Sequence record: PQ462667.1
Length of the DNA stretch: 64,000 bases
Direction: 5' to 3' (one strand)
Origin: Escherichia phage HMD-P3
The notes beneath the pieces were generated by a model. That model was not told the DNA's origin. It ran no database searches and was given only the letters and a program-made list of their open reading frames with translations. Each line of letters starts with the position of its first letter. The first letter of the stretch is position 1. A program made the translations under genes and the position numbers. Below are positions 37,484-64,000 of this stretch, piece by piece.

Positions 37484-39556
37484 TTACCTTATATGAATGT
37501 ACCCGTTTTGCAGGTCTATCTTCATTCTGTAATAGGCTTCCGGGTTAGATGATAGTGCGGCCGCACGATCATATATAATATTCACACCAATTTGAGATAA
37601 GAAAGCATTACCAGCAACTATTTTACTAGCGGTTACAGTACCATTAACTATCATATCTCCGTGTAAGACCATAGCAGGACTAACCCATGCCGAACCATTC
37701 CATTGTCTAGTAAATGCTGTTTGCGGAGCATTACTATTAAACTCAGTTAATACATCGTATTTAACAGGTGGGGAACCAAAATTACTTTGGAAGAAGGAGT
37801 TAGCACGACTATCGTCCCATCCTCCTAATCCGGCCACTCCAAGAGAATACATGCCCGGGCCTCTCTGGCCATCCGCACCAATAGTACCTTCAGTACCACT
37901 CCACTGAACAACGTCTGCCCAGCTAGTACCTTCTAGTAACTTATTAGTAACAGGGTCTAGAGTACCAGTTGTAGCATAAATATTCTGAGTCATATCAGTA
38001 CGGTTAGGCGGTGTTTTAGACCAGCCAGGTGGTGGGTAATCCTGCTCCAATGGTTTTGCTGGTAAACTTTTACCAAGTTTATAAACAAATACTGTTTGTT
38101 TACCTTGCATACCAGTTCCAATATCTACGTCACCATTAGGAGTTCCAATAACAACCCCGCTAGAAATACGAAGAGTATCCCCATCATAACGTATCCACTG
38201 AGTAGCATTACCTATATCTAACTTTGGCTTAGCAGAAGTGTTATCCATTCCCATCCAGATACCAGATTTTGTATCTCCCCAAGTTTTACCTTGAGTATAG
38301 ATTGCCGGATTATCTTGGCCAGTTAGATTAGTCATTACAAAGTTAGCAGCATTGATAGTTTTAGTTATAACACTACCATCAACGTTAACTATCTTTTTAA
38401 TAGGATCGAAAGATATTGGTGCTTTTCCTTCGGCATCTAGGAGGCCTATATTAATAGCACCAGTAGTAGCATCGATTAAAAATGTTTGCTTCCACGTGGA
38501 GCCATCTTTAATCTTACCTTTAATATACGCATAGTTTACTTCTATACCAGTTTCATTAACAAAACTATTGTCAAGAGGGGTATCCTCATTTAGTATAAAA
38601 GTCTGTACTACAGAATCTGTTACATCTTGAGCATTTGGCCCCCACGCTATAGAGGAGACTTTAAATTTATGCTCAATTTTCCACGGGAACGATATAATAG
38701 TTGCCGCTTGTGCAGCACCTACGTTAATTTTTTGGGCCTTAGTCCATCCAGTTCTTGCAAATTCTGCGGAGTCTATATAAGACACGACAAATTCACGAAC
38801 ATTTGCTCCAGATCCCTTATTCCAATCCCATTGCACACGTAAATCATAACGTTCTTTACCATCTGCAATTCTTGCAGCCTTGAAGGTAATATTGCTAGGA
38901 GCAGTGGGTGGTACAAAGTTATATTCTACAGTAAGAAATTTAGAAAACTCAAAGTATCCAGAGGAATCTACAGTTACACCATCAGGCATAGTAACTTGCC
39001 CTGATATACGTACTTTATAATCTCCAATAGGAACACCACCAAATCTAATAGTCGGAGATAGTGGGCCTATATAATACTTTATCCATGGGCTATTTGAAGG
39101 TTGAGTACTTTTTAACTCAATAGTACAATAACTAGCTTCTCCTGTAGTTTCTATAACTACTATAGGAGCACCTACGCCCACATCTACTGGATCAGCTTCT
39201 GATCTAGCGGCAGTAATAATAGGTTTTCTCTTAGTACTAAAGGTAGTTTTATTGGATAAGTTTATACCAATTTTAGCCTCTAGTAATTCAGAATCTATAA
39301 TAGAATCATAAAAAGCCCCTTGAACTTCATAAGAGGTTGAAGGGGTTAGATTATTAATCATTACGAAGAAAGTATCTATACCAGTATAATCACGTCTATC
39401 TATACTTTCTCCTAACTTTAGCCAAAAAGATCTACCAATAACATCATAGTCAGTATATATAGAGTGCTGGACATACGCCATTGTATATCCAGTCATTATA
39501 CTATTTAAGACCATTTTGGCTGGTGCATTATTCGAAATCATTAAATGGATGCCCAC
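37484..39556 (-). CDS. baseplate / central fibre protein (T5 pb4-like)
   Basis: 690 aa, beta-rich; position after the pb3-like gene; T5 pb4 is about 688 aa as I recall. Confidence 0.6.
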   Translation of the reverse strand: MGIHLMISNNAPAKMVLNSIMTGYTMAYVQHSIYTDYDVIGRSFWLKLGESIDRRDYTGIDTFFVMINNLTPSTSYEVQGAFYDSIIDSELLEAKIGINLSNKTTFSTKRKPIITAARSEADPVDVGVGAPIVVIETTGEASYCTIELKSTQPSNSPWIKYYIGPLSPTIRFGGVPIGDYKVRISGQVTMPDGVTVDSSGYFEFSKFLTVEYNFVPPTAPSNITFKAARIADGKERYDLRVQWDWNKGSGANVREFVVSYIDSAEFARTGWTKAQKINVGAAQAATIISFPWKIEHKFKVSSIAWGPNAQDVTDSVVQTFILNEDTPLDNSFVNETGIEVNYAYIKGKIKDGSTWKQTFLIDATTGAINIGLLDAEGKAPISFDPIKKIVNVDGSVITKTINAANFVMTNLTGQDNPAIYTQGKTWGDTKSGIWMGMDNTSAKPKLDIGNATQWIRYDGDTLRISSGVVIGTPNGDVDIGTGMQGKQTVFVYKLGKSLPAKPLEQDYPPPGWSKTPPNRTDMTQNIYATTGTLDPVTNKLLEGTSWADVVQWSGTEGTIGADGQRGPGMYSLGVAGLGGWDDSRANSFFQSNFGSPPVKYDVLTEFNSNAPQTAFTRQWNGSAWVSPAMVLHGDMIVNGTVTASKIVAGNAFLSQIGVNIIYDRAAALSSNPEAYYRMKIDLQNGYIHIR

Positions 39557-54377: not shown

Positions 54378-55591
54378 TCTTTATCTCCCTCGGTGGAACC
54401 TTGAGGTCTACCACCTTCTTGACCCGATACACCTGTTGCAGAACCAGCAACGTTAGCAGGAATACGAATCTTATTCATCTGCTCATCATCTAAAGGTTCA
54501 AGGTTCAGCTCTAAACGAGCTTCGTTACCAGTCATAATACCATTATTAACCAATGAGGTTAAATGTTTAGCCTCAGCTTCTTTATCTGGTGTTAATGCAG
54601 CTACTTCCTTAGTATTAGGAGTAATCTTATAACCAAAAAAGAAAGTAAGAGAACTAGTCAGTTTGTTCAGCATAGGAATGATAGTCATATAATAGAACAG
54701 TTCGATGTTTGGTCGAATGTTCGCATTATTACCACCATCAAGTAGCACTTGCGGAACACCAAAGGCTAGACAGATGGATTTATTAAATCCTTCGATGTCT
54801 TCCTTAAAGTCTAGATCTTTAAAAGAGGATATTTGGGAGTACGGTTTAGCTTTCATACCACCATCTAGAATCAGGACAGAGGACTGACCAGTACTAGGAT
54901 TATAATCTAGTTGTAATTCTTCTTGTTTACGCTCACGCAATTTCTTGTTCAGGATTTCATCCGTCTCAAGAATAAGACCAATCACGGTTCCATTATCGAG
55001 GAACTTCTCTTTAAAGTTAAGCATCTTAGAACGCTTCTCAAGAGAATCAATAACAGTAGCAACACGAGATTGTCCAGAAATTTGGGAATTTGTGCCACAC
55101 ACGTAACTGTTATCCTTTATAAAGATAATCTCATCTACGCGATAGTCTATCTGATTATTAAATATAAATTTTTTGATAAACTTATTGGCATCTGCCTCTA
55201 CTTGCATTAGTGCAGCAGGGACATGATAAAGTGCTGTGCCATCCCAATAGATGTATGCACAACCTTCAAAAAGTAGGTCAGTGACTACAAGTCTACGGAA
55301 TGTGCTTATATCCATGAATGGATTAGGTCGTACATTTAAGAGAGTGTCTAGAGTCTTTGTCTTGATGCCATTAGCATACGTGACAATATTATATTTATCT
55401 CCGACAGTATAAGAACACTCCGCCGCACTATCTATAACCATATTAGCAGTTCTATTGAGAATCTCAATTTTACTGTAGGCTTGTCCAGTGGTAAAAGGCT
55501 TACGGTTAGTGCGATGACTAACTGGTTCCATGTCTCTTATAATACGTTGACCCGGATTTAGCTTTTCAGTAATCCAGCTTTTAAAACCCAT
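54374..55591 (-). CDS. portal protein (T5 pb7-like)
   Basis: 405 aa ORF in the portal position of the head module; size matches the recalled T5 portal (about 403 aa). Confidence 0.65.
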   Translation of the reverse strand: MGFKSWITEKLNPGQRIIRDMEPVSHRTNRKPFTTGQAYSKIEILNRTANMVIDSAAECSYTVGDKYNIVTYANGIKTKTLDTLLNVRPNPFMDISTFRRLVVTDLLFEGCAYIYWDGTALYHVPAALMQVEADANKFIKKFIFNNQIDYRVDEIIFIKDNSYVCGTNSQISGQSRVATVIDSLEKRSKMLNFKEKFLDNGTVIGLILETDEILNKKLRERKQEELQLDYNPSTGQSSVLILDGGMKAKPYSQISSFKDLDFKEDIEGFNKSICLAFGVPQVLLDGGNNANIRPNIELFYYMTIIPMLNKLTSSLTFFFGYKITPNTKEVAALTPDKEAEAKHLTSLVNNGIMTGNEARLELNLEPLDDEQMNKIRIPANVAGSATGVSGQEGGRPQGSTEGDKE

Positions 55592-56028
55592 TATAAGAAC
55601 CTTGCGAATCCTGATTTTGTTTCAGTCTTGACTTGTGTCTTTTCTTGAGGATTCTGTAATTTGTCTTTCTGCTTTTGAACCCACACTTTTTGCTTATTAG
55701 CAGAAAATAAAGGAGGTTCTTTTGTGTAAACCTTATGTAATAATTGGTGATGGTGTACACAAAGGGTAACAGTGTCTTCTACTAGCTCATGCCTATATCG
55801 ATCATAGAATGCCGTCCTATTTGAGAGGACTGTTTCTTCGTCAGTGAAATCCAATTGGAGTTCTTTAGCAAATTTTTTAACTAGTAGAGACACCGTATGG
55901 TAATGATGAAGCTCTAATTCTTCAGCACAACCGCAGATAGCACATTGAGAGTCTTTTTTATATTGACTTTTTATTCCGTCTCTCATAAGGGATATAGCAT
56001 CGCGTTTATATTTTACATTGCTTGCCAT
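55591..56028 (-). CDS. HNH endonuclease-like protein
   Basis: CAICGC ... ELHHYH ... N ... CVHHHQLLH pattern fits the HNH zinc-finger nuclease motif; start set at ATG 56028 (GAGGAG RBS); own promoter upstream. Confidence 0.55.
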   Translation of the reverse strand: MASNVKYKRDAISLMRDGIKSQYKKDSQCAICGCAEELELHHYHTVSLLVKKFAKELQLDFTDEETVLSNRTAFYDRYRHELVEDTVTLCVHHHQLLHKVYTKEPPLFSANKQKVWVQKQKDKLQNPQEKTQVKTETKSGFARFL

Positions 56029-56054
56029 AGTGTTCTCCTCAACTGTATGAATAT

Positions 56055-56083
56055 AGTATACATAATCGTATCGAATTTGTAAA
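56055..56083 (-). promoter_or_regulatory. sigma70-type promoter (minus strand) for the HNH gene
   Basis: On the minus strand TTTACA, 17 bp, TATACT. Confidence 0.45.
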
Positions 56084-56142
56084 GGGGATTTTAAAATGCA
56101 GGAATGGGATACCAACTGAGTAGTATCCCTTCCTATACTTAT

Positions 56143-57459
56143 TTATTTACCACGGGAAATAGAGTAAATTCCATAGCGCAGCGCATCACAAAGGTGAGAG
56201 TTAGCATCATGACGCGGTTTTTCACGTGATAATTTTTCTTCACCTTCTTGGAAATCCCACTTATAGTTCTGCAATGCATGAATTAATGAGGAACATGAAG
56301 CGTCTACAATAATCTTGCCCTGCTGGAATAGTGCTTGTAAGCATGCTAGACCGTCTAGGACAGACTTTTTAGCTGGAGCTGATGCAATTTCATGTTCATA
56401 AGCTAAGTCCTGGCGGAACTGAGCTGCGGCAGAGTCAACAAAAACACGATCAACTTTATAACGATCTATACAGTGCTGAATATAAGCCGCATGCTGAGCT
56501 GTGGTTTTCTCCGCTTGCTGGTACTCTTCTAATACATAGTAAGTATCCGTATCATAATGATATTTAATAGTAAGAACTGCGGTAGGATCACGATAACCAA
56601 CGTCAATACCGAGCAACGTTTCGAATGCTTCATCATCTTTAAAGAAGTGACGCATACCTTTGAGGTCTTTAACATGATCGATAGCATTAAAGGTATCAAA
56701 GATCTGACCTTCGAATACGGAGAAGTCAGCCTCATATTCCTGGCGGAAGTAGTTTTTACTAACTGTACGACGTGCTTCTTCGATGTCATTCAGATCAGCA
56801 CGTGGATTATCACGGTATGTACCATGAATAGATACCCAGTTAGGTAATGTATCATCAAACCCATAGGCATAAAACTCTTTAAACCAGTTACCACCACGAG
56901 GAGTGGAAATAAATAGAGCCTTAGAATTAGGTTTATCTAGGGTAGGACGCAACTGAACCCTGAAGGCATCCCCACCCACATCAGAAATTGCAGCCTCATC
57001 AAAGATGATAAAATCATATGAACGTCCAACTGCGGAGTCGGCCTGAGCCGCGGAAGCTAGTTTAAATAGAGAACCATTAGCTAACTCAATCTCTTTATCT
57101 TTAGCGTTCTCACGTTCGGTTTGTAGGCCATACTTCTTAATGAGACCACGAATCTGAGACCATCCAATGTTGGCCAGTGAGTAGTTAGGGGCAACTACTA
57201 GCACCTTCACATTAGGTTCCAGCAATTTTAGGAACCCAAGTGTGTATGCGATGAAAGATTTACCTACACGGCGTGATACACACGCCGTTACAAAACGATG
57301 TCTAGGGTCTTCTAGCGCATTGATAATCGCTATTTGAGGACCGTTAGGTGTAATACCTTCTTGCGCCAATATTCCCGAAACAGGTAGACGAAAGAAACGT
57401 TTGTCTATTCCGAAATCAATAACATCAACTGTGTTAACGTAGGGTCTTGATACTTCCAT
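56143..57459 (-). CDS. terminase large subunit
   Basis: 438 aa; N-terminal ATPase Walker A VSRRVGKS and C-terminal nuclease-like region; overlaps small subunit stop. Confidence 0.85.
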   Translation of the reverse strand: MEVSRPYVNTVDVIDFGIDKRFFRLPVSGILAQEGITPNGPQIAIINALEDPRHRFVTACVSRRVGKSFIAYTLGFLKLLEPNVKVLVVAPNYSLANIGWSQIRGLIKKYGLQTERENAKDKEIELANGSLFKLASAAQADSAVGRSYDFIIFDEAAISDVGGDAFRVQLRPTLDKPNSKALFISTPRGGNWFKEFYAYGFDDTLPNWVSIHGTYRDNPRADLNDIEEARRTVSKNYFRQEYEADFSVFEGQIFDTFNAIDHVKDLKGMRHFFKDDEAFETLLGIDVGYRDPTAVLTIKYHYDTDTYYVLEEYQQAEKTTAQHAAYIQHCIDRYKVDRVFVDSAAAQFRQDLAYEHEIASAPAKKSVLDGLACLQALFQQGKIIVDASCSSLIHALQNYKWDFQEGEEKLSREKPRHDANSHLCDALRYGIYSISRGK

Positions 57460-57941
57460 TACTTCTTACCTCCAGTAGCTAGGGAAGTAATTAAGTCCAT
57501 GTAGTTTTGGTCCCCAGCTCCAGCAATAATATTATTCTGGATGTTGGTCTGGTTAGCTGGAGTACGGGCTGCTGCCTTCACTTTCTCCAATTCTACCATC
57601 ATTTTCATCTCTTCCATCTTCATCTTGTGTGCCTTCCAGAGAATATCCATAATATCCTGGTCAGAACCCATACCAGTTTCTTCTAGTTCCTCTAGTTTAC
57701 GTTTAATAACTTCATCTAGAACACCAAACAAACGATCTCTGTTACGGAATCCACTCTCCATAAAAATATCATTTAAGTAGTTCTTAACTTCACTACGATT
57801 CATAATATCTCGGAAAGCAATTTCGGACATCCCAAGACTACGTGCGGCAGAAGGCACATCGCTACCGCACTGTAAATAAGCTTCAATCACATCCATCCCT
57901 TCAGGGGACATAAGATCTGGTACTAATACATCATTTGCCAT
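57459..57941 (-). CDS. putative terminase small subunit
   Basis: 160 aa ORF immediately upstream of terL with HTH-like N-terminal region ([16 protein letters not shown]). Confidence 0.5.
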
Positions 57942-57951
57942 ATTTCCTCCT

Positions 57952-59739
57952 TTAGGTAAGGCGTTGAACTGTTACTCTTAATCTCGGTAGGAAAATAGCT
58001 GCAGCCTCATCAGCGTGAATAATTACGCCCAATTCAGCATTACCATTTCCTAGATTTTTAATAGTATAAATATATCCGTTTCTTCTAAATGTTAACTCAT
58101 CAGGTCTACTTGCCCAAGTTTGAGTATAACTGTATGCAGTAGTGGAGTGATAAGGGACTAAGTATCCAGGAGGTAAGGTTAATATTTGATGGAATATTCC
58201 ATCACCTTCCGTGTAACTATGCTGTCTTCTTCCTTGTACTTGCCAAGCAGTACCACCGTATGTGCGTATGGCTCCTCCAGCCGTATTAATATTACCCATA
58301 ATAACTTCCGTAGTTAATATTACCGTTGCGTTAGCATTAGGTAATCCTAGTCCTATGGTAGCTAGAGCCGTATAATAGTTTCCTGCTCCAGGATACGCTG
58401 GGGTTATATCATCACCAACGTAGGTACTAGCAACATTATTAGGAAATAGTCTTAAAGGTACAGTACTAGGACTCCACACAGCTCCATGCTCATTACCGAT
58501 AGTGTTATTACTTGAGTTTACGTACCATTGCTTACCAGCTCCGAACTTGTAAATACTAATCTGAGACTTAGCCCCTCCATAATCTACAGGAGACCATAAA
58601 GATCCATTACTAGAGCCTACAATTTCACAACGCGCAGTGGTATCTCCAAAGGCTCCAGTGTACGCTGCGTTATTTCCAATGTACTCCATATCTGGTCTAT
58701 AGCCTAAATTACCAAAAGCATTTTGGTTGATAAACTTATATCCAGTATTTGGTAAACTAACCCCTTTTACAGTAAAATTAGATGGAGTTATAAGTATATC
58801 TGATCCGGTAAATGGGTTACCAGATACACCCATATTACCATTAGAATATCTCAAATTAAGTACATACCAAATAACCTTAGTAGGAGTTATGTTATACCAA
58901 TCCTGCACATACACTTTCTTAGCGGCCTGTGCTGCTAGATTAGATGTTGAACCTTTACATATATAAACCTTATCAGGATACGTAGGAGATTGGTATAATA
59001 AGTTAACATTAGCTGGTACTGTGCCCTTTTTACCTACGTAACCTCGTATATTAGAGTTACAAACGTAAAACCAATTATGCCCTCTATGGGCGGCCCCTAT
59101 AGGAGCTTGCCAGTTAGGATGCCAGTAGTCAGCATTACCACCATCTATAGGTACTGTAGACGCTCCTGCTGGAAATCCTGCTAAAGTCCATGCCCTTCCA
59201 ATAGCCTCGCCAGCATATGCACCACCAGGCCTATATAAATTAAATCCAGAGGCTTGAGATATAGTACCTCCTGTACCCTGCCTAGCAATTGACTCTTCAT
59301 GCCCTAAACCAGAGTTATAAATATAAGTGCCATGTGCTAAGCTGTTACCTGATGCAAAAGCTGACGTAAGACCTACTTCTGCACCTGCCCTACCAATAGG
59401 CGGATCTTCAAAAAATGCAGTAAATTGACCAACTTGAGACTGAGTACCATTAAGAAAAGCCCTATGAGTACCATTAATCTCAACGGCAGTTAGTATAACT
59501 CTACCAGGGTCGTTGGATTTAATATTTATTATGTCAGAGGGCATCTGACATACAAAAAACCCATTTCCAGCATTTCCTAACCCAGCCTCATAAGTACCAT
59601 CAACTAGGACAAATGGCATATCACTATGAAAAATACTATTGGCATTTGGACTATAGTGACGATTAATGTCACCACCAGATTCAGTATTTAAAGATAGTAC
59701 GGTCTTACCATCGCTATATTTTCCAGCGAAAAAACCCAT
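57952..59739 (-). CDS. receptor-binding tail protein (T5 pb5-like)
   Basis: 595 aa, Gly/Asn/Tyr-rich beta protein; located at the distal end of the late region, divergent from a lipoprotein gene exactly as oad/llp in T5. Confidence 0.6.
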
Positions 59740-59764
59740 ATAATCTCCTATTATAAAAATGTAT

Positions 59765-59793
59765 TTGCTTTCATCCCTCTATTTTGCTATAAT
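59765..59793 (+). promoter_or_regulatory. T5-type promoter with extended -10 upstream of the lipoprotein gene
   Basis: TTGCTT 59765..59770, 17 bp, TGcTATAAT (TATAAT 59788..59793), then AGATTCATAAATTAGAAATGGAGAG and ATG 59825. Confidence 0.65.
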
Positions 59794-59824
59794 AGATTCA
59801 TAAATTAGAAATGGAGAGATAAAT

Positions 59825-60091
59825 ATGAAAAAGTTTGTGATTGCACTAGTTGCCGCAGTTATGTTATCTGGTTGTGCACCTGCTCCCAAACCATTTTGTA
59901 CTGGATTTGTAAAATCTTTTGGTGGTGCGGGAGAAGAACATTACGGCCTCAAGATTCAAAAAGTTCGTATTAAGGGAGATCGCTTCCCAGTAGTACAGCT
60001 CCGTACTAAGTTTGGGTGGTGGGATCTCAGTCAGTTTGATCTTAAATATGGGGATTGTAAATTTAAACTAGAGCAATCTAACTACCTGTAA
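59825..60091 (+). CDS. llp: Llp-like lipoprotein (receptor-blocking superinfection-exclusion protein)
   Basis: 88 aa; signal peptide MKKFVIALVAAVMLSGC with lipobox LSGC; divergent from the RBP gene. Confidence 0.7.
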   Translation: MKKFVIALVAAVMLSGCAPAPKPFCTGFVKSFGGAGEEHYGLKIQKVRIKGDRFPVVQLRTKFGWWDLSQFDLKYGDCKFKLEQSNYL

Positions 60092-60204
60092 TTAGTATAA
60101 AGCAAAAAGACATCCAAGTAAACTAAATTTTTTATTTTTTGGATGGTATATTGGTAGAAACCACTATGTAAGAAAAGTAGAAGTCCTTCTAGGAAGTCAC
60201 AAGC

Positions 60205-60396
60205 ATGGTTGGTTATGCACAAACTATAAAATATTCCAAATACAACATTTACAGGAGCATGAAAGATATGTCAAATAAAAGAAAGAACAGACGCGGAGAA
60301 GTGTACGAAAGTTGGATAAATAGTTTCGGATTTGGTTTTGTATTATTCCTAATCTTCGTAGGCTTTTGGTTAGCAGCTATGGCGGGGTGGATATAA
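60205..60396 (+). CDS. small membrane protein (63 aa, C-terminal TM helix)
   Basis: Basic N-terminal half then hydrophobic GFGFVLFLIFVGFWLAAMAGW; AGGAAG RBS. Confidence 0.45.
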   Translation: MVGYAQTIKYSKYNIYRSMKDMSNKRKNRRGEVYESWINSFGFGFVLFLIFVGFWLAAMAGWI

Positions 60397-60500
60397 TGGG
60401 AGTAATAATTATTATTTTATTAGTTGTGATAATTCTAGGGCAGTGTGTCTTGGATAACCACTTAGCTCGTATTGAACGTAAGCTACGGGAATATAAATAA
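60396..60500 (+). CDS. small membrane peptide (34 aa), not in the supplied ORF track
   Basis: ATG overlaps the upstream stop (TAATG); translates to MGVIIIILLVVIILGQCVLDNHLARIERKLREYK; its stop overlaps the next ATG (TAATG). Confidence 0.4.
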   Translation: MGVIIIILLVVIILGQCVLDNHLARIERKLREYK

Positions 60501-60745
60501 TGTTTAGTATTGTAATTGCTTTTATTATCGGGATACTCGCGGGAGTTTTCGGGACGACTGCGGTAATCAACAAGCATCGTAAATATATTGCGGGGGTGAC
60601 GCGGGAGATTGCGGAAAGGGAGCGGAAGTTTGACGAGAAACGTGCGGAGTTTGAGCGGGAGTGGTCAGATGGATCTCGGGCGTCGCGGAAGAGATTCCGT
60701 GAGTTTAGACCAGAACACAGGTTTGATGACCCTTCTATGCGCTAA
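60500..60745 (+). CDS. small membrane protein (81 aa, N-terminal TM helix, charged C-terminus), GC-rich codons
   Basis: MFSIVIAFIIGILAGVFGTTAV then Arg/Glu-rich tail; G/C-ending codons unlike the rest of the window. Confidence 0.45.
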   Translation: MFSIVIAFIIGILAGVFGTTAVINKHRKYIAGVTREIAERERKFDEKRAEFEREWSDGSRASRKRFREFRPEHRFDDPSMR

Positions 60746-60896
60746 TTTGACTTTTGCCAAATTTCATAAGATTACACATGGAGGTGTGTCCAGTGGCCTC
60801 CCAGATGAGAATGAGTCTCGTTACCGCCCGGTACTTAGCAGACTAATAGTCACGGCATGTTATCATTGCACACCGTGACTATTTCAATTTTAATTA

Positions 60897-61631
60897 TTAC
60901 GCAACTTTTAATTTCTCAATATATTGTTGCGGGCTGCAACTATATTCTGCGCGTTCTTCTTCGGTCATACTTTCCCAACATAATTTTAAGCGATCGGCTA
61001 GGAACTGATAATCATTATCATCCTCGAGAGATTCATCAATAAAGGTTCCGCCTATCAATGCCGCGCCGATCGATAGAATATCATTAACGGCTTGCGCATC
61101 TAGCGTTTTAAATCCATATGATGCCGCTGCTGATAATACACCTTTATGATCATCAATCATCGTAAAATCAGCATTCGGATATAACTGTTTAAATAATTCA
61201 AAATAATAACTTTTATATACTGCGTCCTTGCTGTGGTATATTTCGCTAACCTTATCAGCCTCAAAATATTTATGCAGTGTATCACGGGAAAATACACGGA
61301 TATTACTATCCCCACGCCCGCGCAATCCTTGTTTACGCAAATAATAATAATCCGACTTGCTCATCAGTCGAGCGGTACAAATAATGTTTAAAGTATTTGC
61401 GTCATTCATGCATTGGCGCATATATTCAACTAATGGTAATAAAGTATCTTGCATAATTAAATCATGTTTGCAAGCCTCATTTTTATACTTATTTAAATCT
61501 AAATTCCCATCGCTATCAAAGCAAGGTGCTACACGATGGAATGAGTTAACGATAGTGCCATCCAGATCCCAGATCATGACGCGGGAAATATGCGGGAAAT
61601 TACGGGAAATATTCGTTTTAACTTGATTCAT
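60897..61631 (-). CDS. HAD-type 5-prime-deoxyribonucleotidase-like phosphatase (T5 dmp-like pre-early gene)
   Basis: HAD motif I MIWDLDGTIVNSF; start set at ATG 61631 (GGAGA RBS), giving 244 aa; longest ORF from 61673. Confidence 0.65.
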   Translation of the reverse strand: MNQVKTNISRNFPHISRVMIWDLDGTIVNSFHRVAPCFDSDGNLDLNKYKNEACKHDLIMQDTLLPLVEYMRQCMNDANTLNIICTARLMSKSDYYYLRKQGLRGRGDSNIRVFSRDTLHKYFEADKVSEIYHSKDAVYKSYYFELFKQLYPNADFTMIDDHKGVLSAAASYGFKTLDAQAVNDILSIGAALIGGTFIDESLEDDNDYQFLADRLKLCWESMTEEERAEYSCSPQQYIEKLKVA

Positions 61632-61711
61632 TTTGTTACGTTCTCCATTAAAGGGATGTAGTTTATCCAGCATTGCCCGCTATTTATAAGCGGGCAATAA
61701 TAAATCAACTA

Positions 61712-62104
61712 TTAAAGACCATAAGCCAACGCATCAGCGATAAAACTAATATCTTCGCCGGATACGTGGGAACGAATGCCCGCGCATGTAAATACCTTCG
61801 CGCTCATTAGTTGATCATCAAGACAAGCCGGACAAGGCGCGACAACTGCAAACGCTAGGCCGGATTTTACGGCGTCGATGATAATCGTTTCCTGCTTCAC
61901 CGTGTCAACATAAACGCCTGCGGCCTTGATGTGACTACTAGCGCGGCCTTGCGTATATGCGAAGGTAGTAACCTGCAAAGCCTCATTGAAATCTAATAGA
62001 TCATCAATAACGTGCCCCGCCTCTACGTGGTAACGTTCGCCGTTAGAATAAACCAGAACGATTGAGGATTGAGCGCGATCGAATGGGATATTTTGCTTTT
62101 TCAT
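61712..62104 (-). CDS. hypothetical pre-early protein (130 aa)
   Basis: GGAG RBS 9 nt upstream; contains HVE ... PCPAC residues. Confidence 0.55.
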   Translation of the reverse strand: MKKQNIPFDRAQSSIVLVYSNGERYHVEAGHVIDDLLDFNEALQVTTFAYTQGRASSHIKAAGVYVDTVKQETIIIDAVKSGLAFAVVAPCPACLDDQLMSAKVFTCAGIRSHVSGEDISFIADALAYGL

Positions 62105-62168
62105 GTTTATAACTCCAATTAATTTAATAAGGGTATAAGCTGGGAATATTCCCAGCTTATAAATTTAA

Positions 62169-63833
62169 TTATGCGAAAAATTTGCCGTTTTTAAAGTCAA
62201 TCAAAGTGCGCTGGCCGTTCGCATAGGTAATTAAATGCGTTTGCGTCCAGCTTGACGCGCCAACGTTATAGCCCATATCTAGGGAACCAGCGACGCCCGC
62301 CGTATATACGCCGCCGTATATGCTGGCGGTGTGGGTGTGCCCCGTGTTTAATTTGCCTAGTTTCTTAAATTGTTTTGGATTGCCACGGCTGCCGTTAATG
62401 CCGTTGTGACCGTGTACACCGCACTCAATGCCTGCAATCTTGAAAGATTGATCAGTCGTTAGGAAAATCGCGTTAAACTCACAACCTGCGACGTCACGCA
62501 GCGCATAATCTAGCACGTTAAAAGTATCATCCTGCTTTGCAATAGCTGCATAGATAGCGGCATTCAGGCGGTGATACAGTTCCGCGTTTGCTGGATCATC
62601 TTTAATGTTAGCATTACGATCATCAAGCCAACGAGATAGCGCCAAATCGTGGTTTGATTCCACGATGATTGTTTGACTAAAATCACGTTCCATTGATTCC
62701 AGCACGCGCCCGGTGTCGATCAAATCATCCATAACCTTATCGCGTCCGGCTGCATACTGTTTCGCTAGAAATACACCGGAAGCGCGGTTATGGTGATTGC
62801 GTGATGTAAAATCGTGAACGTCATGGATAAACTGATATTTTGGCTTGAGAATATCAAGCAAACTGTTTTCGCCAGCCCATGACGCTGCGGCGCACTCCTC
62901 ATCTAATTTTTCAGCGTGCACGTCGCCATACTGCAAGCCTAAAACATGCCCCGACGTTTCAAAACATCCGGCGGGGGTCGCGCAAACATTCAGATCATAA
63001 AACATGCCGCTTTCGTCCATCGTTTCAAGCTGGCGCACAAAAAACTCACCGTCTTCGTCGAACTCAACAATCAGCGCACCGTAATTATGCAGCGCCTCCG
63101 CTTTCTGTCCTGCTTTTTGCTGAATGTAGTTTTTGAGCGTTGCCGTTCCGGTTGAGTACATGCGGCGCACCACTTCACCTTTTAAAGCTGGGACACTTTC
63201 GGCGGTGATTTTAGCGTGACCAATTGCCAGACCTTCCAGATTAAGCGCCGTTGCAGTTTCTGCAAATCCAGACAGTGGATAGTCTGCGGTCGGTAGCACG
63301 TTAATCTCTGCCATGAAAGCAAAACGGCGGTTATTTAAAAACACGTTTTTGCTGCAAATATATTTATCAAATGCGGAATCATATTTTACACCGTCTGCGC
63401 CTTCACCATTTTGAAAGCCGTTTTTGTTATAAATATACTTAGAAACGAGCAAATCAGCGCCGCAAAATTTAGCATATTGTTCAAGTGAGGCTAAAAAGTT
63501 TTTATGAGGGAAAGTATTGTTCTGAATCGATGTAATAATAAAGCGTTTTCCCTGTTTTACTTCCCACTGTTCCACCGTGCTAGAAATAATTCCAGCCGCT
63601 TCGGGGCGCTCGTCGTTTTTGATAGCTTTTACAGCTTTCGCCGCTTTTGGTTTTGCTGGTTTATTTTCTTCTAACCAATCACAAATAGCGGTCGAGTGTT
63701 TCGTTGTATCGTAGACCGCTTTTGATATATAGTCGCAGACTTCCAGCTTAGTAGCGCGCAGACGTTTACCGTAGAAATTAAAATCAGCGGCCATCTTCAG
63801 GATAACGGTTTGTTTTTCTGCGGAAAAAATCAT
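62169..63833 (-). CDS. calcineurin-like metallophosphoesterase (T5 A1-like pre-early protein)
   Basis: 554 aa; phosphoesterase-like motifs GDVHA, ESNHD, GVHGHNG, GHTHT; size and position match T5 A1 as I recall it. Confidence 0.6.
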   Translation of the reverse strand: MIFSAEKQTVILKMAADFNFYGKRLRATKLEVCDYISKAVYDTTKHSTAICDWLEENKPAKPKAAKAVKAIKNDERPEAAGIISSTVEQWEVKQGKRFIITSIQNNTFPHKNFLASLEQYAKFCGADLLVSKYIYNKNGFQNGEGADGVKYDSAFDKYICSKNVFLNNRRFAFMAEINVLPTADYPLSGFAETATALNLEGLAIGHAKITAESVPALKGEVVRRMYSTGTATLKNYIQQKAGQKAEALHNYGALIVEFDEDGEFFVRQLETMDESGMFYDLNVCATPAGCFETSGHVLGLQYGDVHAEKLDEECAAASWAGENSLLDILKPKYQFIHDVHDFTSRNHHNRASGVFLAKQYAAGRDKVMDDLIDTGRVLESMERDFSQTIIVESNHDLALSRWLDDRNANIKDDPANAELYHRLNAAIYAAIAKQDDTFNVLDYALRDVAGCEFNAIFLTTDQSFKIAGIECGVHGHNGINGSRGNPKQFKKLGKLNTGHTHTASIYGGVYTAGVAGSLDMGYNVGASSWTQTHLITYANGQRTLIDFKNGKFFA

Positions 63834-63936
63834 AATAATAAAACACCATTAAAGAGATTAAAAAACGTTTGTTATTGGCAATATAGCAAAATATAACGCC
63901 TCGAATAAAAGGAGTAATAATTTGCAACATTAAGAA

Positions 63937-63980
63937 CGGAAGAGCACACGTCTGAACTCCAGTCACAGGACAGACTCTCG
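63937..63980. other. Illumina index-adapter remnant at the right edge - artefact
   Basis: CGGAAGAGCACACGTCTGAACTCCAGTCAC followed by an 8-nt index-like AGGACAGA and CTCTCG; ORF 63784..63966 (MTGVQTCALPF...) is its translation. Confidence 0.9.
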
Positions 63981-64000
63981 GAAACCCTCGAATTCGATAA

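Follow-up and report, generated by a model that had tools for sequence, protein, structure and literature searches.

The 64,000-nucleotide stretch of Escherichia phage HMD-P3 that we analysed (PQ462667.1; the window) carries, between positions 57,952 and 60,091, what we read as a BF23-type host-recognition module: a receptor-binding protein (RBP) that would bind the vitamin-B12 transporter BtuB, and a lipoprotein (Llp) that would block BtuB. We assign this explanation as a whole a probability of about 0.93. Identities, the pb5 fold, the lipobox, the promoter elements and synteny were computed here, while the BtuB dependence of SPC35, BF23 and Bas34 and the exclusion by cloned llp of BF23 and DT57C are published results on near-identical proteins.

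Layout of the locus

The window includes the right-hand terminus of the unique part of the genome of an SPC35-like Tequintavirus, a relative of T5. In the synteny comparison the RBP gene was directly upstream of terS and terL and divergent from the lipoprotein gene. The order runs terL, terS and RBP leftward, llp and small membrane proteins rightward, and then the terminal repeat, and it is common to T5, BF23 and SPC35 (Table 1). The first-pass annotation had described a 595-aa RBP frame and an 88-aa lipoprotein frame with lipobox LSGC, lying divergently in an arrangement like oad (pb5)/llp. Both frames match the ORF list at exact coordinates, and the gene order is the same as in the three reference phages. 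Since homologs are present in hundreds of phage records (n = 537 for RBP, n = 401 for the lipoprotein), neither gene is a chance open reading frame. Shine-Dalgarno sequences lie 5 nt ahead of the RBP start codon (AGGAG) and 6 nt ahead of that of llp (GGAGAG). The membrane-protein frames downstream of llp have counterparts in BF23 Orf1-4 and T5.159-162, and about 40 bp past them the terminal repeat would begin, a boundary placed by analogy with the SPC35 annotation. A homolog of the straight fibre protein pb4 is encoded at about 37484-39556.

Table 1. Coordinates of features at the RBP/llp locus, numbered from the first letter of the window.
Feature	Position	Strand	Remarks
terminase small subunit (terS)	57459..57941	-	phrog_3802, E 6.5e-91; directly downstream of RBP gene
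RBP gene (BF23 Hrs / SPC35 type, T5 pb5 (Oad) homolog)	57952..59739	-	595 aa, ATG; ORF list, phrog_4815
T5 loop L4 equivalent (T5 570-590), RBP residues 533-548	58096..58143	-	MAFFT mapping; putatively receptor-inserting
T5 loop L2 equivalent (tip Phe170), RBP residues 161-179	59203..59259	-	MAFFT mapping; putatively receptor-inserting
T5 loop L1 equivalent (tip Gln115), RBP residues 104-120	59380..59430	-	MAFFT mapping; putatively receptor-inserting
divergent intergenic region, 85 bp	59740..59824	.	llp promoter and both ribosome-binding sites
llp promoter -35, TTGCTT	59765..59770	+	offset from ATG as BF23 DQ097178 'minus_35_signal'
llp promoter extended -10, TGcTATAAT	59785..59793	+	TATAAT 59788-59793; offset as BF23 'minus_10_signal'
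llp, lipoprotein precursor gene	59825..60091	+	88 aa, ATG; ORF list, phrog_1119, LPAM_1
ORFs for small single-pass membrane proteins, following llp	60205..60745	+	phrog_8596, phrog_6447 'membrane protein'
membrane ORF, 63 aa	60205-60396	+	
membrane ORF, 44 aa	60366-60500	+	
membrane ORF, 81 aa	60500-60745	+	

The lipoprotein, its promoter and its possible mode of action

Llp begins with MKKFVIALVAAVMLSGC, and its signal peptide and lipobox read MKKFVIALVAAVMLSG/CAPA, with the signal peptide spanning residues 1-16 and the predicted lipidated residue, Cys17, encoded at 59873-59875. The protein matched the Pfam lipoprotein lipid attachment site LPAM_1 (23.9 bits, cut-off 20). The mature chain has 72 residues and contains Cys25 and Cys78. 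Its residue +2 is Ala, and by the +2 rule of the Lol pathway a residue other than Asp at this position means sorting to the outer membrane. Llp was assigned to phrog_1119 (E 2e-26); it is identical to the SPC35 blocker at 88 of 88 residues and to BF23 Llp at 87 of 88. Cloned BF23 llp lowered BF23 plating by more than 10^6-fold, and DT57C llp, one residue away from that of BF23, lowered the plating of both BF23 and DT57C by more than 100-fold and left T5 unaffected (PMC4728585). Judged by its sequence, the 88-aa lipoprotein is a BF23-type receptor blocker, acting in superinfection exclusion or lytic conversion. The earlier claim that it blocks the receptor used by the adjoining RBP draws support from these near-identical alleles and their published exclusion.

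The putative llp promoter joins TTGCTT through a 17-nt spacer to a perfect TATAAT with a TGn extension. Both elements match the annotated signals of the BF23 record base for base, and T5 llp has the same arrangement of TTGCTT, 17 nt and TATAAT. The intergenic region is identical to that of SPC35 and differs from that of BF23 at three positions, none of them in the -35 or -10 element. A strict sigma-70 consensus scan (59600-60300) did not list this promoter because its -35 element fits the consensus at only three of six positions. The earlier claim that the lipoprotein has a strong promoter of its own is borne out only at the level of sequence elements, which stand at the annotated BF23 positions. 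A terminator scan (59600-60300) found no terminator after llp, and an inverted-repeat search returned nothing beyond two facing TATAAT boxes. On the minus strand no convincing sigma-70 promoter for RBP was found; the lone TATAAT there, 10 nt before the RBP start codon, is too close to serve this gene.

In the mechanism that we propose, llp would be transcribed early in infection from its own sigma-70 promoter, and Llp would be exported, lipidated on Cys17 and, with Ala at +2, delivered to the outer membrane, where it would sit in the inner leaflet. Llp would then inactivate BtuB, and as a result infected cells and lysis debris would stop adsorbing this and other BtuB-dependent phages. By analogy with Llp and FhuA, it may bind the BtuB plug from the periplasm, upon which the extracellular loops would fold inward ('reverse allostery'). 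The T5 mechanism, both for pb5-FhuA and for Llp-FhuA, is described in PMC9586334, where van den Berg et al. proposed that the Llp-FhuA mechanism generalises. We infer the structural mechanism by extrapolating it from FhuA to BtuB, and the step to the same mechanism is the least secure because kinship with T5 Llp is weak.

That kinship was probed by sequence, profile and structure comparisons. In the BF23 literature, the BF23 and T5 lipoproteins are called non-homologous. T5 Llp also belongs to phrog_1119 (E 1e-19); pairwise, the two proteins agree at 20 of 67 positions, mostly in the signal peptide, and hhalign of the Llp family against T5 Llp covered only 28 columns. Against Cor of phage grams (Drexlerviridae, Hanrivervirus), the nearest Drexlerviridae Cor to this Llp, hhalign gave the Llp family a probability of 97.7% over 73 columns, and lambdoid Cor proteins are matched by grams Cor. 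Members of Hanrivervirus in BASEL use BtuB or FhuA as receptor. The NCBIfam Cor equivalog NF047972 scored Llp at 16.1 bits, under its cut-off of 31. An exhaustive HMMER search with the Llp family profile showed the family as isolated at this level, with three hits among 1.84 billion representatives; those beyond the family were one 86-aa lipoprotein (E 6e-4) and one spurious repetitive protein, and the search provided no bridge to Cor or T5 Llp. In the alignments, Cys17 falls on the lipid cysteine of T5 Llp and Cor, and Cys25 and Cys78, invariant in the Llp family, fall on cysteines of T5 Llp and grams Cor. In T5 Llp, Cys11 and Cys58 form a disulfide (PMC9586334). Residues P21, K22, Y40, G51, W65 and F71 are also common to Llp and T5 Llp.

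The AF2 model of Llp (pLDDT 83) has a predicted C-terminal helix. Foldseek found nothing significant for it in the PDB and did not retrieve the solved T5 Llp, so that kinship at fold level with that structure is not established; phmmer against PDB sequences likewise gave only noise. AF2 is known to mispredict free T5 Llp (PMC9586334). Among BFVD models the Llp model matched the phiR2-01 blocker (TM 0.79) and a Drexlerviridae exclusion protein (probability 1.0, TM 0.52), and the T5-type lipoprotein of slur09 only at E 0.058. Taken together, the profile evidence suggests that BF23 and T5 Llp belong to one Cor-like lipoprotein superfamily, with HMMER and equivalog scores falling short. In a fuller reading the BF23-type Llp is homologous to T5 Llp and Cor, though divergent, and jams BtuB from the periplasm by plug-binding reverse allostery, an ancient fold retargeted among TonB-dependent transporters. 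A blocker on the periplasmic face would be free to combine, through recombination, with RBP alleles as divergent as 71%. We hold this fuller reading at even odds.

If Llp instead blocked BtuB in a manner unlike T5 Llp, then it might work from the extracellular side, cover the receptor while its loops stay in place, or interfere with BtuB assembly or TonB coupling. The marginal likeness to T5 Llp beyond the signal peptide and the failure of the model to retrieve it from the PDB speak for such a difference, as does a mature chain 11 residues longer (72 against 61) with a predicted C-terminal helix. Neither a BtuB-Llp nor a BtuB-RBP structure was among the PDB matches (phmmer, Foldseek), and blockers vary from phage to phage, given that the FepA-cluster phage S124 uses an unrelated one of 103 aa. 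Such a difference nonetheless appears unlikely in view of the shared phrog, the lipid cysteine with a cysteine pair at the Cys11-Cys58 positions and the six further common residues, the full-length hhalign match to Drexlerviridae Cor with its link to lambdoid Cor, and the Ala at +2, which, as in T5 Llp, predicts a periplasm-facing outer-membrane protein. Both receptors, FhuA and BtuB, are moreover TonB-dependent transporters with plug domains, and van den Berg et al. proposed that the mechanism is a general one.

The receptor-binding protein and its receptor

RBP matched phrog_4815, 'receptor binding tail protein', over residues 1-595 (E 6e-282), and T5 pb5 over its full length with 30% identity (BLASTP, E 2e-55); phmmer returned the pb5 chains 8b14_B and 8a8c_B (E 3e-47). 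All RBP homologs carry PF26860 in a precomputed table, and RBP itself had no match in a local copy of Pfam-A or in NCBIfam. Its AF2 model (pLDDT 88, pTM 0.89) is nearly all beta, and Foldseek gave T5 pb5 as the sole significant PDB match (8b14_B, E 9e-31, TM 0.64/0.69; 8a8c_B, E 2e-27). By this model RBP shares the elongated pb5 fold with its large central beta-sheet. The first-pass annotation had noted that RBP is shorter than T5 pb5, as it is (595 aa against 640 aa), and had proposed a receptor other than the FhuA of T5, perhaps BtuB or FepA, a proposal to be dropped if RBP proved essentially identical to T5 pb5. Because RBP differs widely from T5 pb5, the proposal stands on this point, and the RBP identities and the BF23-type blocker favour BtuB.

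Identity was highest with the RBP of SPC35, at 592 of 595 residues (99.5%; substitutions V86I, W281G and V324I, either conservative or at variable sites), followed by Bas34 SelmaRatti of the BASEL collection (96%), BF23 Hrs (499 of 595, 84%, no gaps), Bas33 (79%), Bas27 (78%) and phiR2-01 (59%). The RBP of S124, which we chose to represent the FepA cluster, shared 27%. The RBP genes of this phage and SPC35 differ at 76 nucleotides, 72 of them synonymous, and the excess of synonymous changes over the three non-synonymous codon differences indicates purifying selection. BtuB dependence has been reported for SPC35, BF23, EPS7, DT57C and phiR2-01 (PMC8624392; PMC4728585; PMC10644984), the SPC35 result at second hand, and the BASEL S5 table lists BtuB as the receptor of Bas27, Bas33 and Bas34. 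In Markadamsvirinae the receptor is predicted by which of three clusters an RBP belongs to (PMC8594841), and the RBPs of 23 BtuB-binding Demerecviridae are about 30% identical to pb5 (bioRxiv 10.64898/2026.04.02.716166), the same value as for the RBP here. In the identity comparison, RBP groups with RBPs of BtuB-dependent phages and is distant from the clusters that use FhuA and FepA. The receptor of RBP, as read from these identities, is almost certainly BtuB.

We then considered which parts of RBP would make contact. With T5 pb5 mapped by MAFFT onto the RBP family, column entropy among 23 BtuB-type RBPs was 1.35 over residues 104-120, 1.26-1.42 over residues 161-200 and 1.28 over residues 541-560, as compared with about 0.5 in the core. 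These most variable segments coincide with those aligned to the T5 loops L1, L2 and L4 (loop definitions from PMC9586334), of which T5 L4 is 12 residues longer than its equivalent here (T5 insertion 562-573). By analogy with T5 we infer that these equivalents are the receptor-inserting loops. The N-terminal 60 residues and the C-terminal strand of RBP, on the other hand, are kept across receptor classes (against T5 pb5 and S124), which would fit a common docking end for pb4. In the proposed mechanism the conserved ends would most likely dock on pb4, and the variable loops at the opposite end would insert into the extracellular lumen of BtuB, a TonB-dependent transporter, as pb5 does with FhuA. 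Engagement of BtuB would lead to irreversible adsorption, tail opening and DNA ejection.

Could RBP recognise another outer-membrane protein, such as FhuA or FepA, despite its likeness to BtuB binders? The loop regions are the most variable within the RBP family, three residues differ from SPC35, and receptor switches are known across the pb5 family as a whole. We judge this highly improbable, since the two closest RBPs come from BtuB phages, BtuB is still used by RBPs at 59-84% identity, likeness to the FhuA and FepA-cluster types is far lower, and the adjoining blocker is the BtuB-specific allele. That Llp has some other role, as a lysis protein of o-spanin type or as a generic moron of the membrane, only incidentally adjacent to RBP, can be dismissed as next to impossible: like o-spanins it is a short lipoprotein of the outer membrane, PADLOC matched neither it nor RBP, and the curated Cor model scored it below cut-off, but it is nearly identical to BF23 Llp and of the DT57C type, both of which excluded specifically when cloned, some 400 phage records have it conserved beside an RBP of the BtuB type, and its gene has its own early-type promoter and is not embedded in a lysis cassette.

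If the module works through BtuB, then the phage should need BtuB as terminal receptor, hosts should become resistant through btuB mutations, and there should be cross-exclusion with other BtuB phages. In cocktails, the phage would complement phages that target FhuA, FepA or LPS. The module also touches a general question that is not particular to this sequence, namely the structural basis on which BtuB is engaged by RBPs of its type and by Llp.

Comparison with known systems

The module is already known: it has been sequenced, named and functionally characterised, and the phage is about 95% identical to Tequintaviruses of the SPC35 group. A near-exact copy was sequenced in 2011 in Salmonella phage SPC35 (SPC35_0143, RBP; SPC35_0144, blocker), and the module was genetically dissected in BF23 and DT57C. 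SPC35 has the same neighbours (terS, terL, membrane proteins and terminal repeat), and its surrounding genome has about 94.5% nucleotide identity to this phage.

The hrs/llp pair of BF23 (DQ097178; Mondigler et al. 2006) is equal in protein lengths (595 and 88 aa), arrangement and llp promoter; its receptor is BtuB, and blocking by its Llp has been demonstrated (PMC4728585). At the nucleotide level the RBP gene is 67-83% identical to that of BF23, whereas llp is 96.7% identical. Read from the sequences, this high divergence beside near-identity is a mosaic produced by recombination, its breakpoint lying close to the intergenic region, as has been described for DT57C (PMC4728585).

T5 has oad (pb5) and llp in the same position and divergent orientation, with a homologous RBP fold (8A8C, 8B14, FhuA-Llp). 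Its receptor is FhuA, and pb5 is 45 aa longer than RBP, the insertions lying mainly at T5 residues 174-182, 256-268, 282-291 and 562-573. T5 Llp has the cysteine pattern of this Llp, yet is barely alignable past the first cysteine. The Cor proteins of Drexlerviridae and lambdoid phages resemble this Llp in being small lipoproteins of the outer membrane that are encoded beside the RBP locus and have a lipobox, two cysteines besides the lipidated one and a central GW/W motif; classical Cor acts on FhuA, unlike this lipoprotein, which is of the BtuB type.

Module layout and flanking genes

The first-pass annotation had placed a receptor-binding protein (RBP) gene beside a lipoprotein gene (llp) as a host-range and exclusion module like oad/llp of T5, and the ORFs found agreed exactly with the positions claimed for both. 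The two genes diverge from an 85-bp spacer, each is preceded by a Shine-Dalgarno sequence, and they are not chance ORFs. PHROGs placed the RBP in phrog_4815 'receptor binding tail protein' (E 6e-282); for the lipoprotein, Llp, it gave phrog_1119 'Cor superinfection exclusion protein' (E 2e-26). It also identified the terminase small subunit in the ORF downstream of the RBP gene. Leftward, the genes run pb4, pb3, tape measure, tail and head genes, portal, terL, terS and RBP; rightward, llp is followed by small membrane proteins and then the terminal repeat. This is the gene order of SPC35, BF23 and T5, and together with the homology of both proteins it supports the module reading. Near-identical copies of this module were already known. 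The 3.1 kb around the module in the window are 95-97% identical in nucleotide sequence to ~40 Salmonella/Escherichia T5-like phages, including SPC35, ABTNLsp4, HMD-P5 and Th1, and the final 24.5 kb of the window are 94-96% identical to this same group.

Features of the RBP/llp module and its flanks, in window coordinates
Feature	Position	Strand	Description
ORF of up to 174 aa between portal and terL	55591-56115	-	CxxC...HHxH...CxHHH motifs
RBP gene, 595 aa	57952-59739	-	ORF call
Inverted repeat, first arm	59748-59755		CTATTATA
llp -35, TTGCTT	59765-59770	+	coincides with -35 annotated in BF23 record
llp extended -10, TGcTATAAT	59785-59793	+	17 nt from -35; coincides with BF23-annotated -10
Inverted repeat, second arm	59788-59795		TATAATAG
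llp, 88 aa	59825-60091	+	ORF call; N-terminus MKKFVIALVAAVMLSGC
Small ORFs 3' of llp: 63, 44 and 81 aa	60205-60745	+	ORF call
258-aa ORF	60897-61673	-	positional counterpart of 5'-deoxyribonucleotidase gene; DxDGT motif
554-aa ORF	62169-63833	-	matched records: 'A1 protein' or 'DNA transfer protein'

The closest relative of the window was vB_SenS_S124 (OK108607; 95.7% nucleotide identity), which is distinct from S124 (NC_048013), the Epseptimavirus of the receptor literature. Of the small ORFs past llp, the 63-aa one matched a PHROG of unknown function, phrog_8596; the 81-aa one matched phrog_6447 'membrane protein' and, weakly, LapA_dom. The counterparts in T5, T5.159-162, carry annotations as single-transmembrane proteins; in BF23 the position is taken by Orf1-4. 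The small ORFs are 87-91% identical to SPC35, below llp (100%). Judging by the SPC35 annotation, the start of the long terminal repeat would lie ~40 bp past the 81-aa ORF, and in ~60790-64000 the window runs on into pre-early genes of the minus strand. The motifs in the ORF between portal and terL are suggestive of an HNH endonuclease. At this position T5 has an annotated endonuclease (T5.154) and SPC35 a shorter hypothetical protein.

A receptor-binding protein of the BtuB class

As had been claimed, the RBP differs in length from T5 pb5 (595 versus 640 aa), to which it is 30% identical over the full length (E 2e-55). It matches the RBPs of SPC35 at 592 of 595 residues and of ABTNLsp4 at 99.5%, followed by those of the BASEL collection phage Bas34 SelmaRatti (96%), BF23 (Hrs; 499 of 595, gapless), Bas33 HildyBeyeler (79%), Bas27 TrudiGerster (78%) and Yersinia phage phiR2-01 (59%). 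The RBP of S124, which represents the FepA cluster, shares 27%. BtuB, the vitamin-B12 transporter, is the receptor of BF23, SPC35, EPS7, DT57C and phiR2-01 (PMC8624392; PMC4728585; PMC10644984) and is listed for Bas27, Bas33 and Bas34 (BASEL S5 table). Markadamsvirinae RBPs form three clusters, BtuB, FepA and FhuA, that are predictive of the receptor (BASEL, PMC8594841), and in a 2026 preprint that draws on genome-wide screens, the RBPs of 23 BtuB-binding Demerecviridae are ~30% identical to pb5 (bioRxiv 10.64898/2026.04.02.716166), the same value that we obtained for the RBP here. Near-identity to the RBPs of BtuB phages, combined with 30% identity to pb5, almost certainly means a receptor unlike that of T5, namely BtuB among the options previously proposed.

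The sole matches to the RBP sequence in the PDB were the two T5 pb5 entries, 8b14_B and 8a8c_B (E 3e-47). An AlphaFold2 model built with 28 homologs was confident (pLDDT 88, pTM 0.89), and a Foldseek search of the PDB with this model returned only the same two entries (E 9e-31 and 2e-27; TM 0.61-0.69). Neither PDB search matched a BtuB-class RBP. We accordingly assigned the RBP as a pb5-fold protein of the BtuB class. PF26860 is the precomputed Pfam accession for all of the RBP homologs; a Pfam-A search with the window RBP returned no family, probably because the release searched predates or lacks this model.

In T5 pb5, the tips of loops L1 and L2 are Gln115 and Phe170, L4 comprises residues 570-590, and the end opposite these loops is the probable pb4 contact (PMC9586334). 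Mapped onto the RBP family, L1, L2 and L4 correspond to RBP residues 104-120, 161-179 and 533-548, and by homology with pb5 these loops would insert into the receptor. Across 23 BtuB-type RBPs, variability in 20-residue windows was highest at 101-120, 161-200, 241-260 and 541-560 (entropy 1.3-1.8, versus ~0.5 in the core), and three of these four regions overlap residues aligned to the T5 loops. The 45-aa shortfall relative to pb5 is made up of several indels, the largest T5 insertions being 174-182, 256-268, 282-291 and 562-573. The first ~60 residues and the C-terminal strand are conserved across all three receptor classes, which agrees with a docking end that they share; in T5, BF23 Hrs is able to take over the function of pb5 (PMC10644984). 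The RBP genes of the window and SPC35 differ at 76 nucleotides; of the codon changes, 72 are synonymous and 3 non-synonymous, a pattern that indicates strong purifying selection. Selection of this strength contrasts with the usual view of the RBP as fast-evolving.

The lipoprotein, its promoter and its kin

By the established sorting rule of the Lol pathway, the Ala at +2 of Llp predicts an outer-membrane location. The lipid-attachment site was recognized by Pfam LPAM_1 (23.9 bits, cut-off 20). Llp and the SPC35 'receptor-blocking protein' agree at 88 of 88 residues, and only I44V separates Llp from BF23 Llp. When the DT57C llp allele, itself one residue from that of BF23, was cloned and expressed at leaky levels, BF23 and DT57C plated more than 100-fold less efficiently, with no effect on T5 (PMC4728585).

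The promoter that the first-pass annotation had attributed to llp itself is present, judging by elements at the positions annotated in BF23, and T5 llp likewise has TTGCTT, 17 nt and TATAAT; that it is strong is a sequence-based expectation. The spacer is identical to that of SPC35 and differs from that of BF23 at three positions, none of them in the hexamers. A strict consensus promoter scanner did not list the llp promoter because its -35 matches just 3 of 6 positions. A perfect 8-nt inverted repeat puts two outward-facing TATAAT boxes in the spacer; the one on the plus strand is the llp -10. The other, on the minus strand, was ruled out as an RBP promoter, since it lies only 10 nt from the RBP start codon, which is too close.

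The BF23 literature describes the BF23 and T5 Llp proteins as non-homologous (PMC4728585; PMC10644984). Against kinship, pairwise similarity of Llp to T5 Llp was marginal (20/67, for the most part signal peptide), hhalign of the Llp family against T5 Llp covered just 28 columns, and the curated NCBIfam Cor model scored 16.1 bits, under its cut-off of 31. Foldseek against the PDB with the Llp model did not retrieve the solved T5 Llp; AF2 mispredicts free Llp according to the T5 authors (PMC9586334). Only 11 clusters make up the family, none below 59% identity, and its HMMER profile, run exhaustively against 1.84 billion representatives, found only one further lipoprotein of 86 aa (E 6e-4), which shares the Cys and GW pattern. 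In favour of kinship, T5 Llp likewise falls in phrog_1119 (E 1e-19). The Llp family aligned over its full length with the Drexlerviridae Cor of phage grams (hhalign, 97.7% probability, 73 columns), which in turn matched lambdoid Cor proteins at E ~4e-10. Cys17, Cys25 and Cys78, together with P21, K22, Y40, G51, W65 and F71, align across the Llp family, T5 Llp and Cor, and Cys25 and Cys78 sit where T5 Llp has its Cys11-Cys58 disulfide. Among predicted viral structures, the Llp model matched the phiR2-01 blocker (TM 0.79) and a Drexlerviridae exclusion protein (prob 1.0, TM 0.52), and a T5-type lipoprotein marginally. We place Llp in the Cor/Llp superfamily as a probable, divergent member, as PHROG-based RefSeq annotations already do.

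By hhalign, the BF23-type Llp family is closer to the Cor of grams, a T1-like phage (at 3001-3228 of locus L004), than to T5 Llp. Hanrivervirus members in BASEL use BtuB or FhuA. Were BtuB the receptor of grams, blocker type would follow the receptor from one phage family to another.

Receptor blocking and the RBP/llp mosaic

T5 Llp is periplasmic, binds the FhuA plug in a non-native conformation and causes an inward folding of extracellular loops EL7 and EL8 that covers the pb5 site, and its authors suggest an extension to other TonB-dependent transporters (PMC9586334). By analogy, Llp would most likely jam BtuB from the periplasm as T5 Llp does FhuA, a reading to which we assign a probability of about 0.6. 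Blockers are not all of one kind, as S124 of the FepA cluster has an unrelated 103-aa blocker; a mechanism other than T5-like periplasmic jamming is less likely for Llp.

Nucleotide identity to BF23 is 67-83% in the RBP gene, 89% in the spacer and 96.7% in llp, with the shift near 59680-59830, and on these values the RBP/llp pair is a recombination mosaic relative to BF23. In the phage database, the Llp allele of the window (at least 95% identical) has as neighbours RBPs with 99%, 84% and 71-72% identity to the window RBP, and a second allele (~69%) adjoins RBPs that are 78-83% identical to it. Such a mosaic would be expected were Llp to act on BtuB at a face out of contact with the RBP. A 2026 study stated that the RBP of Citrobacter phage Cit2 is 96.9% identical to T5 pb5, and FhuA use and RBP/Llp 'decoupling' were inferred (PMC12980165). 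We found this RBP (OP745948.1; 601-2355 of locus L006) to be 30% identical to T5 pb5 and 71.6% identical to the BtuB-type RBP of the window, with a BF23-type Llp. Most likely Cit2 uses BtuB, and the decoupling inferred for it is probably mistaken. A recombination point between hrs and llp has been described in DT57C (PMC4728585), and the RBP/llp mosaic of the window repeats it.
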